26,721 nucleotides of DNA, from the IMG/VR virus record IMGVR_UViG_2778260996_000006; one strand, given 5' to 3'. The stretch is from a virus (Duplodnaviria > Heunggongvirae > Uroviricota > Caudoviricetes). Shown one piece after another: positions 1,368-26,269 of the stretch (position 1 is its first letter; each line of letters starts with the position of its first letter). The position numbers were made by a program, and so were the translations under genes. The notes beneath the pieces were generated by a model. It saw only the letters and a list, made by a program, of their open reading frames with translations. It ran no database searches and was not told where the DNA came from.

Positions 1368-2871
1368 CTATAATCCTCTCTGAAAAGCAGTGCTGGATGG
1401 CATATCCTGCGCACCGCGCGCTTCGCACATCATATCCATGTACCACGCCTGGCCCCTTGTATCGCCAGTGTACATAATCCCGCGCACAATATAAACGCCA
1501 TCCGTTGCGATGCTGGCAGGCTGCGATGTGGTGCCGCTTAGCGTAATATTTCCGTCCGTGTTCTGGTCGGTGATCTGCCCACCAGCCATAGCGATATCGT
1601 TGTTCGACAACGCGGTGCGATATACGGAAGCCTGATCCAGTTGAATGAGCCCATTAACCCGGATGTTCGGATTAATAAGCGCGCGAACGTTTACGCCGTT
1701 GCCGATGGTCTGCTGCGGCATGCCAATAAGCCCGGTAGCGCTGTTGAGCACAATCGCTTCGTGAACATATTCATTATTCGCCACCATCTGGCGCTGACCG
1801 TCTACGAATTGCCATGTTGCGCCACATTGCCCGGCTACGTTATCCATTAGATGCCGCGTCATGCCAAAGAGCACCCGCCCCCGGGGGAATACAGTAGCAG
1901 GCATTTCAGGCGTCAGGCCTTCGGTCGCACCTTTGGCTTCGAAGTCTTTCATCAGCGCACGGTTCACATCAGCGACCGTGTAACCGGCAGCCAGCGTCTG
2001 TGAGGTTATACTGGTGGCAAAAGCCAGATCAGTATCTGCTGCCTGAATCAGGACGTAGGAATCAACCGGACTGTCTTTTCCTGTAACCGAGTAGCGAATT
2101 TCACCGCTGAAAATCAGTCCGTAGTTGCGGCCATCACTCTGGCCCACGTCCGCCGCATCAACCTCCCGCACGATCCCGACGTCGCTTGCCGACACCTCCG
2201 GCGCGATACCGTCGTAACCCGCAATCAGACGCACTTTCGAAAACTCCCGCCCGGTGATTCGGTTCACAGTATCTGCCGAGAGGTTATAAATTTTGATAGT
2301 CCCTACCCGGGACGCGCTGCTGATGTTGAACCAGTCGATCGTAAAGGTCACTTTAAAATCACTTAGCTCAATTCCCTGACCGTTCCCGTCCACAAGCTGC
2401 ATTCACATCAGCGACCGTGTAACCGGCAGCCAGCGTCTGTGAGGTTATACTGGTGGCAAAAGCCAGATCAGTATCTGCTGCCTGAATCAGGACGTAGGAA
2501 TCAACCGGACTGTCTTTTCCTGTAACCGAGTAGCGAATTTCACCGCTGAAAATCAGTCCGTAGTTGCGGCCATCACTCTGGCCCACGTCCGCCGCATCAA
2601 CCTCCCGCACGATCCCGACGTCGCTTGCCGACACCTCCGGCGCGATACCGTCGTAACCCGCAATCAGACGCACTTTCGAAAACTCCCGCCCGGTGATTCG
2701 GTTCACAGTATCTGCCGAGAGGTTATAAATTTTGATAGTCCCTACCCGGGACGCGCTGCTGATGTTGAACCAGTCGATCGTAAAGGTCACTTTAAAATCA
2801 CTTAGCTCAATTCCCTGACCGTTCCCGTCCACAAGCTGCAGCTCGAAATGTCTCATCCAGTTCTGTGACAT
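1368..2871 (-). pseudogene. distal tail/baseplate-hub-like protein, reading frame broken by an internal 439-bp tandem duplication
   Basis: ORFs 2368..2871 and 1368..2402 carry the same 146-aa segment; removing one repeat copy restores a single ORF of about 354 aa. Confidence 0.6.
1963..2840. repeat. perfect tandem direct duplication, 2 x 439 bp (1963-2401 and 2402-2840)
   Basis: Base-by-base comparison shows identity over both copies; flanks differ (1962 g vs 2401 a; 2402 t vs 2841 g). Confidence 0.9.
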
Positions 2872-2873
2872 GC

Positions 2874-3176
2874 TTACTCCGTTGATACCAGTAAATGGCT
2901 GCGACCGCCCAGGTCAGTTTTTGTGGGGTAATCCTGTGTGTTGTCATCACAGACCACCACCAGCTTAAAACCAAGCCCCATACAGGCGTACTGCGCCAGC
3001 AGGTCAGCACCAGTGACGAGAGGAATACCGGAGATTACCGGCTCCCCTCTGTCGTTCTGCAGGTCCATAATCCAGTACAGATCGCGCCATATGATGCTAA
3101 TCCGCCAGGTAACACCACCCAGGACGATGCTGAACTGCTGGTTGTCCGCTGTCAGCGGAATTTCCTGAATTGCCAT
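2874..3176 (-). CDS. hypothetical tail protein (100 aa)
   Basis: ORF track; position downstream of tape measure in tightly packed operon. Confidence 0.45.
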   Translation of the reverse strand: MAIQEIPLTADNQQFSIVLGGVTWRISIIWRDLYWIMDLQNDRGEPVISGIPLVTGADLLAQYACMGLGFKLVVVCDDNTQDYPTKTDLGGRSHLLVSTE

Positions 3177-3763
3177 TAGCCGCCCCCCAGTAATGACGCC
3201 ACGTTACCCGTGATGCTTTTCAGCAGTGAAGTATCTGGAGGCTTGGTGGTTTTGTTGCCGCTGTTCTGTACCGCCGACGTGCTGGCCCCTTCCTTCATGT
3301 TGGTTTTATCCGCGACGGAAATCTGCTGTGTCCGGGAGATAAGGACCTCCCTCAGGGTGAGGACGGCGGACAGGACGTTTTCGGTTGTCTTGTCCGTCGT
3401 CACTTCCAGCGCCCGGATCAACATGTTGCTGTACAGTCGTTTACCGGTTACCACATCGAAGGGGATACGGCTTTCCTGCAGATCCAGTAGCTCCTGATAC
3501 GTCTGCTGAGGACTCAGGCCGAGCAGGCTGGTAGCCGTCAGGTTACTGGCAAAATCCAGCAATGCGCCACCACCGGCGAAACCAACCTCCATCACCACTT
3601 CTGACGGTTTTTTATAGGCATGATCAGCGACAGCGGCCCCGACCTCTACCGGATGCTCTGTTATTTCAAGCATATCTGTATGCTTCTCTGAAATAACAAC
3701 ACAGGGAACAATCATTCCTATTTTTCTGCTCTGCTGATGAAAAAGTGTAGAGAGAATATCCAC
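3176..3763 (-). CDS. hypothetical tail protein (195 aa), start overlaps tape-measure stop (TGATG)
   Basis: ORF track; translational coupling to the upstream gene. Confidence 0.5.
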   Translation of the reverse strand: MDILSTLFHQQSRKIGMIVPCVVISEKHTDMLEITEHPVEVGAAVADHAYKKPSEVVMEVGFAGGGALLDFASNLTATSLLGLSPQQTYQELLDLQESRIPFDVVTGKRLYSNMLIRALEVTTDKTTENVLSAVLTLREVLISRTQQISVADKTNMKEGASTSAVQNSGNKTTKPPDTSLLKSITGNVASLLGGG

Positions 3764-22326: not shown

Positions 22327-22539
22327 TTAAGCCTTTTTATCGTTTTGTGAGCCATACAACAGCCAATTAGGGTCGCAATCCAATGCTATAGACATTTCAA
22401 GAAGATAACGTGGCCGAGCAATAACACCACTTTCAATTCTGTTTATTGCCTGCTGGCTCACTCCTGTGAGCTCAGCCAACGTAACTTGCGTCATTTTGAG
22501 TTCTTTACGTCGTTCTTTTACTCGGGTCGCTAAGGTCAT
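22327..22539 (-). CDS. cro: Cro-like HTH repressor (70 aa)
   Basis: Start trimmed to ATG 22539 (GAGGTGA 7 nt upstream); XRE-type HTH; divergent from CI; about 60% identical to the CI N-terminal domain. Confidence 0.8.
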   Translation of the reverse strand: MTLATRVKERRKELKMTQVTLAELTGVSQQAINRIESGVIARPRYLLEMSIALDCDPNWLLYGSQNDKKA

Positions 22540-22659
22540 TGCTTTCACCTCATACAATTTTAGTGGTATTTAGCAACAACAAATGAGGTTTGTCAAATAC
22601 AACAAAAATTGTTTTTAATGTGGGTATACACATTAATACAACCCAGAAGGACTAATCCC
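22540..22659. promoter_or_regulatory. cro/cI divergent promoter-operator region (OR-like)
   Basis: Palindrome TTAATGTG-N6-CACATTAA at 22615-22636; repeated ATACAA-N6-T(T/G)GT(A/T)T sites at 22552-22569 and 22597-22614. Confidence 0.5.
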
Positions 22660-23283
22660 ATGTCTCTCGCAGCCCGTTTTAAAGCACGTCGTTTGGAATT
22701 AGGAATGACTCAAGTGGAAGTAGCGAATTCTGCAGGGGTTAGCCAACAATCCATAGAATCCATCGAAAGTGGACGAACCAGAAAGCCACGCAATCTTCTG
22801 GATCTGGCTAAGGCCTTGAAATGTAGCCCAGACTGGCTACTGAACGGTAAAAATATTATGCCTCTCGCGGAGATAAGTACCAGACGCATACCTATATTAA
22901 GTTACGTTCAGGCAGGAGAGCTTACAGAAGCAAGAGACATAACAGATCTGACAGGGGAATTTGAATATATTTTGGCAGACTCTGACATTCCAGAAACATG
23001 CTTCGCATTACGTATTGATGGCGACAGCATGCAACCAGAGTTTAAAGAAGGAGACATTGTTATCATCGATCCTGATCTATGTCCTGCACCAGGGGAGTTT
23101 GTTGTCGCCAAAAACGACGGTCACGAAGCTACATTTAAAAAATACCGTCCATTAGGAATCGGCATCGACGACTTTGAATTAATCCCCCTAAATCCTGATT
23201 ACCCTATTTTTCGTAGTGCAGATATGAACTTACAGATCATAGGTGTAATGATCGAACACCGTATTTACCGCCGTAAACGTTAG
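22660..23283 (+). CDS. cI: CI-type prophage repressor (HTH + S24 LexA-like peptidase)
   Basis: Start trimmed to ATG 22660 (AAGGA RBS); N-terminal HTH; Ala-Gly site (VQAGEL); Ser (GDSM) and Lys (ATFKKY) catalytic dyad. Confidence 0.9.
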   Translation: MSLAARFKARRLELGMTQVEVANSAGVSQQSIESIESGRTRKPRNLLDLAKALKCSPDWLLNGKNIMPLAEISTRRIPILSYVQAGELTEARDITDLTGEFEYILADSDIPETCFALRIDGDSMQPEFKEGDIVIIDPDLCPAPGEFVVAKNDGHEATFKKYRPLGIGIDDFELIPLNPDYPIFRSADMNLQIIGVMIEHRIYRRKR

Positions 23284-23302
23284 TATTCCCACCGTAAATA
23301 TC

Positions 23303-23348
23303 GGGAGGCGTAACAGCCTCCCTTACCCCATTTGTAAAGTCTTACAAA
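23303..23348 (+). promoter_or_regulatory. stem-loop after cI (GGGAGGC-GTAACA-GCCTCCC) plus 18-bp palindrome TTTGTAA-agtc-TTACAAA (OL-like)
   Basis: Read directly; third ATACAA-N6-TTGTAT site at 23418-23435 lies just downstream. Confidence 0.35.
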
Positions 23349-23605
23349 TTAAATTCACTTAAATATCAATAAAGTAGTATTCACACCCCACAAAATACCA
23401 CGTTTGCGGTTTACACAATACAACTCAAATTGTATCTTTAGCCACAAGTCGAACGGCGCGACTCTAAACCATGCGTCGGGACCGTGGCGGGACAGGATGT
23501 CGGCAATACGGGTCAGTAAGTTCCCTTTGGGGTGCGGCGAAGCACTGCCTACTGATACAAGTCGAAGCCGCCGAACCACCAAAGTGAACTGAATGAGGAA
23601 ACGGC

Positions 23606-23800
23606 GTGAAAACATATAAACCGCTCAAAGGTGAATGCCCTGCTTGCCAAACACAGCTTCAGACACCAAAGCCAAAACGATACCAAATCAACGAATGTTA
23701 TGAGCACTGCCCTGGATGTGGTGCTTTCCTGCATACCATTGCAACGCACTGGCGTGTCCGCTTCAACCTTGTGGTACCACGTACGCACAATACCAACTGA
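23606..23800 (+). CDS. small zinc-ribbon protein (64 aa), candidate early regulator
   Basis: GTG start with GAGGAAA RBS; CPAC ... C-x3-C-x2-C cysteine arrangement; first gene downstream of cI in N-like position. Confidence 0.5.
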   Translation: MKTYKPLKGECPACQTQLQTPKPKRYQINECYEHCPGCGAFLHTIATHWRVRFNLVVPRTHNTN

Positions 23801-23831
23801 ATCATCCATGTAATTGCTGTGTGTAGTCTTT

Positions 23832-23857
23832 GCCCGCCGCAAGTGACGGGCTTTTTT
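23832..23857 (+). terminator. intrinsic terminator after the zinc-ribbon gene
   Basis: GCCCG-N10-CGGGC hairpin followed by TTTTTT. Confidence 0.5.
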
Positions 23858-23916
23858 ATGTCTGAAAGCGCACTCGCAACAGCGCGCTCCCCGATATGAA
23901 AAAAGGAATACAACCG

Positions 23917-24066: not shown

Positions 24067-24965
24067 GTTTAGAAACCAGTCTCGAACTTAATAATCAACT
24101 TCTGGCACAACATAATGCGCTGCTTGAACGTCTTATCCGCACAATGGCATCAGGTATTGTTATGCATCCTGACACGATTTCACGAGTGCAGGAATGTCGG
24201 GATACAGCAACTGAAACTGAAAATATGTCAGCGGCAATGACACTGGATGATCTGGAGTTCAGCGACGTTATCGCACTGGCTGGTTTCTACCCGGTAGCCA
24301 CCCCTATCACAGAAGACATGCTGCAACGTGCTGTTGCCTACCGTGATGCTGAAGGCGATAAACGAGTAGTTCAGATTGATCCTCTCGACAGCGCATTGCA
24401 GGGCGTCAAACGAGCCAGGGCACTGCATAAACCCGCTCTTCTGGACCTGTCCCGTAACATTCTTAAGTTCTGGGACGACCTGCCAACCATCGGCGAGCGA
24501 CGTGCTTTTGCCGAGCAACTACTTGATGCACCTGCAGATGGGCGTGATGAAGTTAAGCCGAAAAAGGCCAGTAACAAAGATGGAGAACGCACGGGGCCGT
24601 TTTACGTCAAAAATGTATCCGGCACAGCAGCCAGTGAACTCCACACCTTACGCAAGTTGAACGAGATGCTTAAAAAAGGCCATATCGAGATCAACCGTGT
24701 TGAGTACCTTCAGCTGCAGGAAGAATTTGCACGCAGAGACGCAGCAAATTCCAGCCAGAATAATGACGCCAAAGATGACCATACAATTGATTTCGCGGCA
24801 CTACGCAAACAAGCTGAAGGGTTGATCCTCCAGTTAGCAAAAGGGGGTTACCGGGCAGAAGCTATTGCAATTCTGGAAAAACAGGGAGCCAGGAAACTTG
24901 GTGAAGTAACGGATGAAAATCTCGCTGAAGTAATCACCCTGGCTGAAAAAGCACTGGAGGGTTAA
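24063..24965 (+). CDS. hypothetical early protein (300 aa), function unknown
   Basis: ORF track; uniform coding-like composition; no motif recognised. Confidence 0.65.
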
Positions 24966-24967
24966 TC

Positions 24968-26269
24968 ATGCCAGACGTTCATGCACAACTTTCTCCATCA
25001 TCAGCGCATCGATGGATGCGCTGCCCAGGAAGTCTGGCGCTGGAGGCCACACAACCGGATAAAGAAACAACTTTTGCAATCGAGGGCACTGCAGCGCACG
25101 CGCTTGCTGAAAAAGTTCTACGAAACAGGCAAAGCCACCCGGAACACTACGCCGGATGCAATGTTTCTATGTTTCTCGGCTCATACCCCCTTCGCGAAAA
25201 TCCTGATGATACATCTGGCCCACAGGTGGATGATGAAATGGTCGAAGCCGTTGGCCGGTATGTTGATACGGTCTGGACTCTTGCACAGAATAATGAACTA
25301 TTGGTTGAACAACGTGTTGATTTCTCACATATAACGGGGGTGGAAGAATCTTTCGGAACTGCCGACGGCATAATCATCGCTGGTAACGAATTACAAATCC
25401 ACGACCTGAAATATGGCAAAGGCGTCCGCATTGATGCAGAACAAAATGAGCAACTACAACTGTATGCTCTGGGTGCGCTCGAACAATTCAGCATGCTGTA
25501 TGACTTTGAGACTGTAAGATTATTTATTCACCAGCCAAGGCTCAACCACGTTTCAGAATGGTCGTTAACCGTACAGGAACTTCAGTCTTTCGGTGAACGG
25601 GCACAGGAGGCCGCAACCAGTGCGATCCTTGTTCTCAATATTGCTGAATGCGAAGGCATTGAGACACTACCGCTGGAAAACTTCATACCTGGAGAAAAAC
25701 AGTGCCGCTTCTGTAAAGCAAAAGCTATTTGCACTGCCCAGAAAATGCAGCATTTACAAACAGCGGCCAGCGATTTTGAAGATCTGACAAAGCCTGTCAG
25801 CGAAATAATCACCAATGCCAGCGCACGTGTACCTCTGTTAACCATTGAGCAGCTTGCGGAGATCTATAGCCAGGCCGACTTTATTGAATCCTGGCTAAAG
25901 GCAGTACGGGACCGGGTTCACAATGAACTCAATGCCGGACATCCGGTACCGGGGTTTAAACTGGTAACAGGAAAACAAGGTAACCGGGCCTGGAGTGATG
26001 AAGAGGCAGCTCGCGCACTTCTGAAGGACCAGTTCAGGTACAAAACTGAAGAAGTATTCGACTTTAAACTTATTAGTCCCACAAAAGCCGAAAAACTTAT
26101 CAAAAAGGCCAGTCCACGCCGTTGGTCAAAAGTCGAGGCACTGATAACACGAGCTGATGGTAAACCAACCGTCATTCCCGAGTCAGACCCACGCCCCGCA
26201 CTCAATATCAACCCTGTAAATGATTTCGACGACGTATCCGACGATACGCTAACCGCAGACCTCATCTGA
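24968..26269 (+). CDS. PD-(D/E)XK nuclease, Cas4/RecB-like with Fe-S Cys cluster (DUF2800-like)
   Basis: N-terminal [14 protein letters not shown]; catalytic-like GTADG ... [10 protein letters not shown]-terminal C-x2-C-x5-C cluster. Confidence 0.75.

Follow-up and report, generated by a model that had tools for sequence, protein, structure and literature searches.

Does the divergent cro–cI region of this prophage hold an immunity switch of an unusual kind, and which sites should its two DNA-binding proteins read? The window, the whole 26,721-nucleotide stretch of viral DNA analysed here (IMG/VR record IMGVR_UViG_2778260996_000006), had been described in an earlier note as carrying a Cro protein paralogous to the DNA-binding domain of CI, with operator-like motifs shared on both sides of cI. 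The region copies the phage 434 switch point for point, though in diverged form, and is real but ordinary; every sequence-level feature that marks membership of the 434 class was found in it. It is very probably a phage-434-type bistable immunity switch in an Escherichia coli prophage of myovirus-like type.

The cro and cI genes and their exchangeable cassette

The window is an E. coli prophage, myovirus-like. The region around the switch is 100% identical to E. coli strain FDAARGOS_1059, in which the prophage adjoins yfhL, and a prophage with the same cassette is present in 44 of 5426 complete E. coli genomes. In the phage collection, the prophage is closest to vB_EcoM-606R2 with its kin and to Salmonella phage SEN34. 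The cro and cI genes are divergent, separated by a 120-bp spacer, and the gene order flanking them follows the logic of lambda. The leftward early operon is composed of cro, a VapE primase/helicase gene, the gene for a Q antiterminator, lysis genes and virion genes, and the rightward early operon of a zinc-ribbon open reading frame, DUF2800, DUF2815, DNA polymerase, helicase and an xis-like gene; the integrase gene, on the opposite strand, follows the rightward operon at the prophage end. The genome is not of the lambdoid type: cro is followed directly by VapE, replication is represented by DUF2800, DUF2815, the DNA polymerase and the helicase, and the only lambdoid-like features of the prophage are Q and a lambda-family holin. 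The tail genes are sheath- and tube-like (DUF3383, DUF3277). These contractile-tail genes, with the VapE/DNA polymerase/DUF2800 replication set, indicate that the host phage is not a lambdoid siphovirus.

The two genes and the cassette that contains them are placed as follows.

22327..22539, minus strand: cro, encoding a 70-residue HTH_3 protein, first gene of the leftward early operon (list of open reading frames; Pfam HTH_3, E 1.7e-14)
22660..23283, plus strand: cI, encoding a repressor of 207 residues whose N-domain is a 434-like HTH and whose C-domain is of the S24 (LexA-type) family (Pfam HTH_3 and Peptidase_S24)
22342..23443, no strand: exchangeable immunity cassette, comprising the end of cro, OR, cI, a hairpin and OL/PL (identity breaks against STEFF_1 and 07_3722)

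The ATG of cro is at 22539 on the minus strand, and PGAP annotates the identical 213-nt coding sequence; the ATG of cI is at 22660, not 22661. Phage 434 Cro is the best solved-structure match of the window Cro (E 1.9e-19), with 54% identity over 70 aligned residues, and residues 1–69 of the 434 repressor are that of CI (E 5.9e-16). P22 c2 is a weaker structural match of both window proteins (E about 1e-7). The C-terminal domain of CI matches Peptidase_S24 (Pfam, E 1.8e-21) and, in an alignment with 434 CI and the relatives, Ala85-Gly86, Ser123 and Lys160 are invariant; the domain is predicted to cleave itself at Ala85-Gly86 by way of a Ser123/Lys160 dyad.

Cro and CI, both of which match Pfam HTH_3, align with each other without gaps in BLASTP at 36 of 63 identical positions (57%, E 2e-22), and at 55% over 66 residues in a MAFFT alignment, in close agreement with the roughly 60% over about 65 residues from which their paralogy had been proposed. 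From these matches Cro is predicted to be a helical HTH_3 domain, homologous to the N-terminal domain of CI, and not to have the lambda Cro fold. The Gln-Gln pair that opens helix 3 is invariant across every CI and Cro sequence compared, and the base contacts of both glutamines are known from 434 co-crystal structures. The earlier note had presented the kinship of the two proteins as unlike lambda. The contrast with lambda is correct, but the arrangement is no oddity: it is the textbook one of 434, found in many phages in the database as a pairing of Cro with a CI N-domain, and the switch seemed unusual because lambda had been the only comparison. Within the phage collection, the closest CI proteins (vB_YenM_29.18, CobraSix and ST16-OXA48phi5.2) are 58–60% identical to that of the window, none exceeding 60%; the window holds an uncharacterised immunity specificity of the known 434 class.

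The boundaries of the cassette are defined by strains STEFF_1 and 07_3722, in which flanks identical to the window enclose an unrelated repressor pair, consisting of a 230-residue XRE-family protein and a 61-residue Cro. Identity with the window is lost at about 22342 and is back by 23441–23444, at or just before the first copy of ACAAGTCGAA. Two further cassettes are carried by Sx181 and 2011C-4315. Prophages that are otherwise identical thus exchange the whole immunity unit as one cassette.

Predicted operators and promoters on both sides of cI

Sites of the form ATACAA-N6-T(T/G)GT(A/T)T had been reported twice between cro and cI and once downstream of cI, and all three are present. The motif ATACAA-N6-TTGTAT occurs, with at most one mismatch, three times in 26.7 kb (22552-22569, 22597-22614 and 23418-23435) against 0.09 expected, and none of 100 shuffles reached three copies. 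The perfect core ACAA-N6-TTGT is found at only two places in the window, 22599-22612 and 23420-23433, both within these 18-mer sites. The proposal of OR-like and OL-like operator sets is supported and enlarged: there are six positions in total, of which the earlier note saw three and missed 22576-22589, 23397-23410 and 23365-23378.

The OR side consists of three predicted operators and two putative divergent promoters.

22554..22567, no strand: O1 (OR1 equivalent), ACAATTTTAGTGGT, overlapping -10/+1 of the PR-like promoter, which points leftward; both LH50c and B379 retain the site
22576..22589, no strand: O2 (OR2 equivalent), ACAACAAATGAGGT, with a degenerate right half-site; placed by position
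22599..22612, no strand: O3 (OR3 equivalent), ACAACAAAAATTGT, matching the core perfectly and lying within the PRM-like promoter spacer; identical in LH50c and B379
22567..22596, minus strand: PR-like promoter of cro, with TTGACA (22596-22591) as -35 and TAAATA (22572-22567) as -10, separated by 18 nt of which the last three are TGC; read from the sequence
22590..22619, plus strand: putative PRM-like promoter for cI, -35 TTGTCA (22590-22595), weak -10 TTTAAT (22614-22619)

For the comparison, OR and OL of 434 were read directly from its sequence, and the operators of GenBank OL657227 (labelled OL1-3, inside cI) were set aside. In both phages three 14-bp OR operators with spacers of 8 and 9 bp are arranged around TTGTCAAAT, which carries the perfect -35 hexamer (TTGACA) of the leftward PR promoter. 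Reading from the CAT of cro, 434 has 13 nt, ACAAACTTTCTTGT, 8 nt, ACAATGTATCTTGT, TTGTCAAAT and ACAGTTTTTCTTGT, and the window has, in register with it, 14 nt, ACAATTTTAGTGGT, 8 nt, ACAACAAATGAGGT, TTGTCAAAT and ACAACAAAAATTGT. O1 therefore lies 14 nt from the cro ATG, compared with 13 nt for its 434 equivalent, and O2, exactly 8 bp after O1, runs directly into the 9-bp TTGTCAAAT spacer before O3, as in 434. The PR-like promoter, which can alternatively be read with a 17-nt spacer and CTAAAT, is colinear with TTGACA-17-GAAAAT of 434. The PRM-like promoter is likewise colinear with its 434 counterpart, and the TT(T)AAT that follows O3 is kept in LH50c, B379 and Sodalis. The hexamers of both PR and PRM fall below a stricter consensus promoter scan, which did not call them.

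Downstream of cI, a hairpin and an AT-rich stretch precede the rightward operon, and a second predicted operator set is present.

23303..23322, plus strand: GC-rich hairpin GGGAGGC-gtaaca-GCCTCCC after cI, read from the sequence; probable cI terminator
23365..23378, no strand: OL3 equivalent, ATCAATAAAGTAGT, weak (18-mer with three mismatches)
23397..23410, no strand: OL2 equivalent, ACCACGTTTGCGGT, abutting the PL -35; 9 bp before OL1, as in 434
23420..23433, no strand: OL1 equivalent, ACAACTCAAATTGT, matching the core perfectly, within the PL spacer; identical in B379 and colinear with 434 OL1
23410..23438, plus strand: PL-like promoter TTTACA-17-TATCTT of the rightward early operon (promoter scan); colinear with 434 PL, TTTACA-17-TAATTT

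As in 434, the OL triplet lies over a TTTACA-17 PL promoter that points in the same direction as cI. The operators are spaced by 9 and 18 bp, compared with 9 and 17 bp in 434, the longer gap being that between OL3 and OL2. The hairpin has no clean T-run and was for that reason not called by a terminator scan; hairpins of different sequence occupy the same place in LH50c (GAGGGC..GCCCTC) and B379 (GGAGGGC..GCCCTCC).

The ACAA-N6-TTGT core is the pattern of the six 14-bp OR and OL sites of 434. Half-sites of the imperfect window operators read ACCA, ACCT, ACCG, ACTA or ATCA, with ACCA present in O1, OL2 and OL3. OL2 is symmetric in the relatives, where it reads ACCAyATTTGTGGT (ACCA-N6-TGGT); such sites extend the consensus to AC(A/C)A-N6-T(T/G)GT, AT-flanked. 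O2, OL2 and OL3 deviate from the consensus at two or three positions (two mismatches in O2) and were called by position and conservation, not by motif score. The relatives have ACAATAAATGATGT and ACAGCTAATCATGT at the O2 position and ATATCAATAAnnTGGTAT at that of OL3. With a matrix built from the relatives only, the six top-scoring positions of the window are the six predicted operators, at 13–24 bits, with O2 ranked fourth among all window positions and the next position at no more than 12.5 bits; this test is partly circular, because the sites of the relatives are homologous DNA. No further operator copy in the 41-kb prophage locus scored above 14.3 bits.

Conservation was assessed in LH50c and B379, two E. 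coli prophages with only 76–79% DNA identity to the window that share its recognition helices (QQSIES or QQSIET in CI, QQAINR in Cro). The block from O1 to the -10 of the cI promoter (22552-22619) shares 87% of its positions with LH50c and 93% with B379, whereas the adjacent cI leader is 41% identical in this alignment and the coding ends are 70–82% identical; all three OL positions are also conserved. The earlier note had staked its reading on the palindromes persisting in related phages, and the operators persist.

More distant loci preserve the layout. In Sodalis and Acerihabitans, where CI is 78% and 71% identical to that of the window, perfect ACAA-N6-TTGT sites are found at the positions of both O1 and O3. 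The same architecture with ACAG-N6-CTGT in place of the window core occurs in Yersinia phage vB_YenM_29.18 and in prophage loci of Pantoea, Tatumella, Erwinia and Enterobacter, the phage and the genome loci alike having the OR layout of the window, including TTGTCAA(A/T)T. The TTGTCAA motif is kept in ten of ten ACAG-type loci, as well as in 434, LH50c, B379, Sx181 and Sodalis; Acerihabitans has TTGTCTAAC. Operator position 4 thus differs between lineages, being G in the ACAG group and A in the window, and the CI helix of that group reads QQSW, compared with QQSIE here, which implies an immunity specificity different from that of the window. Enterobacter phage CobraSix and Klebsiella phage ST16-OXA48phi5.2 are relatives at the protein level only.

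Other palindromes, the PL leader and an RNA element

Two palindromes and the direct repeat ACAAGTCGAA had also been put forward as possible repressor sites.

22615..22636, no strand: palindrome TTAATGTG-N6-CACATTAA, in the 17 bp by which the spacer exceeds that of 434; function unsupported
23331..23348, no strand: palindrome TTTGTAA-agtc-TTACAAA, with half-sites facing the wrong way for the operator geometry
23444..23605, plus strand: conserved PL leader with both copies of ACAAGTCGAA (23444-23453 and 23557-23566), outside the immunity cassette

All three are present, but none is supported as an operator of CI or Cro. The first palindrome, a perfect 8+8 inverted repeat over the putative PRM -10/+1, finds no support as a conserved operator, since in LH50c and B379 it is 55% identical, compared with 87–93% for the operator block, and no other copy occurs in the window at up to three mismatches. 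As a CRP site it is rejected by its spacing: the CRP consensus is TGTGA-N6-TCACA, and the palindrome has TGTG-N6-CACA where TGTG-N8-CACA would be required. The second palindrome, besides its wrong-facing half-sites, is kept in only one of the two relatives (B379, as TTGTAAAATCTTACAA) and is absent from LH50c. These two elements might instead serve a third regulator, neither CI nor Cro, that uses one or both of them for additional control of cI. Shuffling the 120-bp spacer yields a perfect 8+8 repeat only 2.8% of the time, the first palindrome overlaps the putative PRM -10 within the 17 bp absent from 434, and the retention of TTTGTAA-N4-TTACAAA in B379 points the same way. Such a regulator is nevertheless improbable, as TTAATGTG-N6-CACATTAA is single in the window and unconserved in the two relatives despite their identical type of CI and Cro helices and their conserved operators, TTTGTAA-N4-TTACAAA is missing from LH50c, and no candidate regulator was identified.

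The 10-bp direct repeat ACAAGTCGAA is rejected as a CI/Cro site because it falls outside the cassette and is retained beside other immunity types: the PL leader that contains it is 98–100% identical in prophages with unrelated repressors. The leader was also considered as a known or strongly structured RNA of nut- or put-like type, and this was rejected, there being no Rfam match at E ≤1 and a folding energy no better than that of shuffles (z = -0.41).

A conserved RprA-like RNA element lies just downstream of the switch and is more curious than the switch itself. Against Rfam RF00034 it scores 48.2 bits (E 2.7e-5), below the gathering threshold of 70; its 3' part alone matches well, with 24 nt identical to K-12 rprA and the terminator. 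The putative RNA would be about 65 nt long, with its end at 23861. Searching the literature for RprA-like RNAs of prophages yielded none.

Age of the duplication and probable working of the switch

In 434, a duplicated cI DNA-binding domain gave rise to cro by displacement (PMC6649833). Whether the window pair descends from that event or from a younger one was addressed with a neighbour-joining tree of 12 Cro/CI pairs, computed from only 66 columns and rooted at the midpoint. In this tree the sequences cluster by gene and not by phage, the Cro proteins in one group and the CI N-domains, that of 434 excepted, in another; the CI of 434 falls on the Cro side under midpoint rooting. In addition, the window Cro scores 71.8 bits against 434 Cro and 46.5 bits against the 434 repressor, with the preference reversed for CI. 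Clustering by gene, together with the greater nearness of each protein to its own 434 counterpart, indicates that the duplication predates the family and is not recent here. A young, lineage-specific cro, recently copied or gene-converted from the neighbouring cI N-domain, would fit the within-phage identity of Cro and CI (55–57%), which is as high as that of Cro with 434 Cro (54%), and a 40-nt inverted DNA repeat, 70% complementary, that links the two HTH regions; it is rejected as highly improbable on the grouping by gene in the 66-column tree, on the bit-score preferences and on the published placement of the duplication in the 434 lineage (PMC6649833).

By homology with 434, CI and Cro should both read the predicted operators, and would do so in different rank order. 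The course of events set out here, comprising binding, the order of site occupancy, PRM activation and CI cleavage, is predicted from the comparison with 434. In a lysogen, CI dimers would occupy 14-bp AC(A/C)A-N6-T(T/G)GT operators. At O1 and O2 they would block the leftward promoter, and with it cro, vapE, Q and the late genes; at OL1 and OL2 they would block the rightward promoter of the genes for replication and recombination. CI bound at O2 probably aids the weak cI promoter, and O3 would provide negative autoregulation. Upon DNA damage, RecA would stimulate self-cleavage of CI at Ala85-Gly86 through the Ser123/Lys160 dyad, and Cro, which descends from an old duplication of the DNA-binding domain of CI and still has the Gln-Gln pair, would then bind the same operators and turn cI off. 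The occupancy order of 434 may not transfer to the window, since O3 is here the best match to the consensus, whereas 434 OR3 is a non-consensus site. No cII homologue follows cro, and the establishment of lysogeny is not accounted for by the 434-type reading.

The roles assigned to the two proteins might in principle be reversed, with the small HTH protein as maintenance repressor or accessory factor and the HTH-S24 protein as a LexA-like SOS sensor that does not silence the prophage, given that roles are here assigned from sequence and that small HTH_3 proteins are functionally diverse (Pfam matches include MqsA-like and other HTH families), but this is extremely improbable when the small gene heads the replication/Q/lysis operon in the position of cro, its product corresponds specifically to 434 Cro, the S24 protein corresponds to the 434 repressor and retains the cleavage residues, and both genes are exchanged with the operators as one cassette.

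The 434-type switch thus retained differs from its namesake in several respects. Identity to 434 is 38% for full-length CI, 48% for the CI N-domain and 54% for Cro, although the paralogous all-helical HTH Cro and CI N-domain, the S24 self-cleavage domain of CI and the Gln-Gln recognition helix are common to both. The residue equivalent to Gln33 of the 434 repressor is Ser in the window CI and Arg in the window Cro, compared with Leu in 434 Cro. The window uses ACCA half-sites in O1, OL2 and OL3; its O3 is perfect and its O2 the poorest OR site, unlike 434, in which OR3 is the non-consensus one. Its spacer is 17 bp longer ahead of cI, cI and OL adjoin with no gene separating them, cII and N are both missing, and the switch belongs to a phage with contractile-tail genes and a VapE/DNA polymerase/DUF2800 replication set. 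With lambda the switch shares divergent PRM and PR promoters, a tripartite OR, OL/PL downstream of cI, a CI of the SOS-cleavable type and Q-dependent late genes, but lambda Cro folds differently and shows no detectable similarity to the CI N-domain, and lambda operators are 17 bp long and of other sequence. The c2 and cro products of P22 include a helical HTH repressor N-domain of the same superfamily, with a much more distant homology; P22 operators are 18 bp long and differ in sequence.

The shared ACAA-N6-TTGT core, spacing and Gln-Gln readout suggest that the window CI might cross-react with operators of 434-family lambdoid phages, or the 434 repressor with those of the window. Phages whose virion and replication modules are unrelated would then show partial cross-immunity or cross-induction. 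The ACCA half-sites in O1, OL2 and OL3 could conceivably let CI and Cro distinguish between sites, in which case the order of occupancy would be unlike that of 434, O3 being the perfect site here. Taken together, the two proposals are speculative and rather unlikely to hold.

For biology at large the locus carries little weight, as it adds one more uncharacterised immunity specificity to the well-understood 434 class. Its annotation gains operators, promoters and a corrected cI start, and a 434-type cassette is seen to move as a 1.1-kb unit among non-lambdoid E. coli prophages. Across the related loci, the ACAA, ACCA and ACAG half-sites and their recognition helices form a natural series of variants for studies of co-change between repressor and operator.

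Immunity cassettes and their exchange

The immunity region (22342–23443), which spans the end of cro, the operator OR, cI, a hairpin and the OL/PL region, is swapped as a 1.1-kb cassette among prophages that are otherwise near-identical, as comparison with loci L040, L041, L042 and L043 showed. At least four cassette types were seen:

the window's own 434-type cI/cro pair
a 230-aa XRE-family protein paired with a Cro of 61 aa
another 434-type pair, whose operators are ACAG/ACAA
two HTH proteins, of 224 and 66 aa

In two more distant loci, from Sodalis sp. dw_96 (L009) and Acerihabitans sp. (L016), cI and a complete OR are retained (about 2780–3630), yet cro is absent after them, and the operator region instead adjoins a Q-like antiterminator ORF. 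Stop codons disrupt cI in the Acerihabitans locus, and both loci are probably decaying prophages.

In the GenBank record of phage 434 isolate 434B (OL657227, locus L002), features labelled OL1–OL3 lie at 1641–1722, within the cI coding sequence, and sequences with the 434 operator pattern are found at about 2575–2660, about 500 bp downstream of cI. Judged from these sequences, the operator annotation of the record looks misplaced.

The start of the rightward early operon

The cassette is followed by these features:

23444–23605, + strand: PL leader of the rightward early operon, GC-rich and roughly 160 nt long, its 5′ end being the predicted transcription start
23606–23800, + strand: 64-aa ORF with a zinc-ribbon pattern (CxxC...CxxC), which begins with GTG behind a good ribosome-binding site
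23752–23861, + strand: RprA-like RNA element, a sub-threshold Rfam RprA match where the zinc-ribbon ORF ends, with a conserved core at about 23795–23861
about 23838–23861: intrinsic terminator between the PL leader and the replication genes

The leader is 98–100% identical across prophages carrying different immunity cassettes, and a second, diverged type occurs in the prophages of B379 and 2011C-4315. A search of 23444–23605 against Rfam gave no match, and the folding z-score of the leader is −0.41. Because the intrinsic terminator separates this leader from the replication genes, the operon may need some read-through or antitermination device. The zinc-ribbon ORF is missing from the PGAP annotation of the identical genome. 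Its position is occupied by other sequence in some relatives, so the stretch from the leader to the RprA-like element is variable.

In the same prophage, the operon continues past the window's right end (locus L001), where it is broken up by two opposite-strand genes with no assigned function and carries a gene for a TIR-domain protein, which may be accessory or defence cargo (24587–25216, 27391–28152 and 28881–29678).

The RprA-like RNA element

At 48.2 bits (E = 2.7e-5), the match to the Rfam RprA model falls short of the threshold, which is 70. The element is identical to K-12 rprA over 24 nt, AATTGCTGTGTGTAGTCTTTGCCC, after which come a terminator hairpin and a U-run. Among seven prophages whose upstream sequences differ, the core is near-invariant apart from two substitutions, and the terminator loop is variable. 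No RNA annotation was present at any of 14 sampled matches, and a literature search found no paper describing the prophage element; three of those 14, plasmid or chromosomal, lie under an annotated ‘hypothetical protein’. Of 5426 E. coli genomes, 179 carry the element, and 27 of its places are on plasmids.
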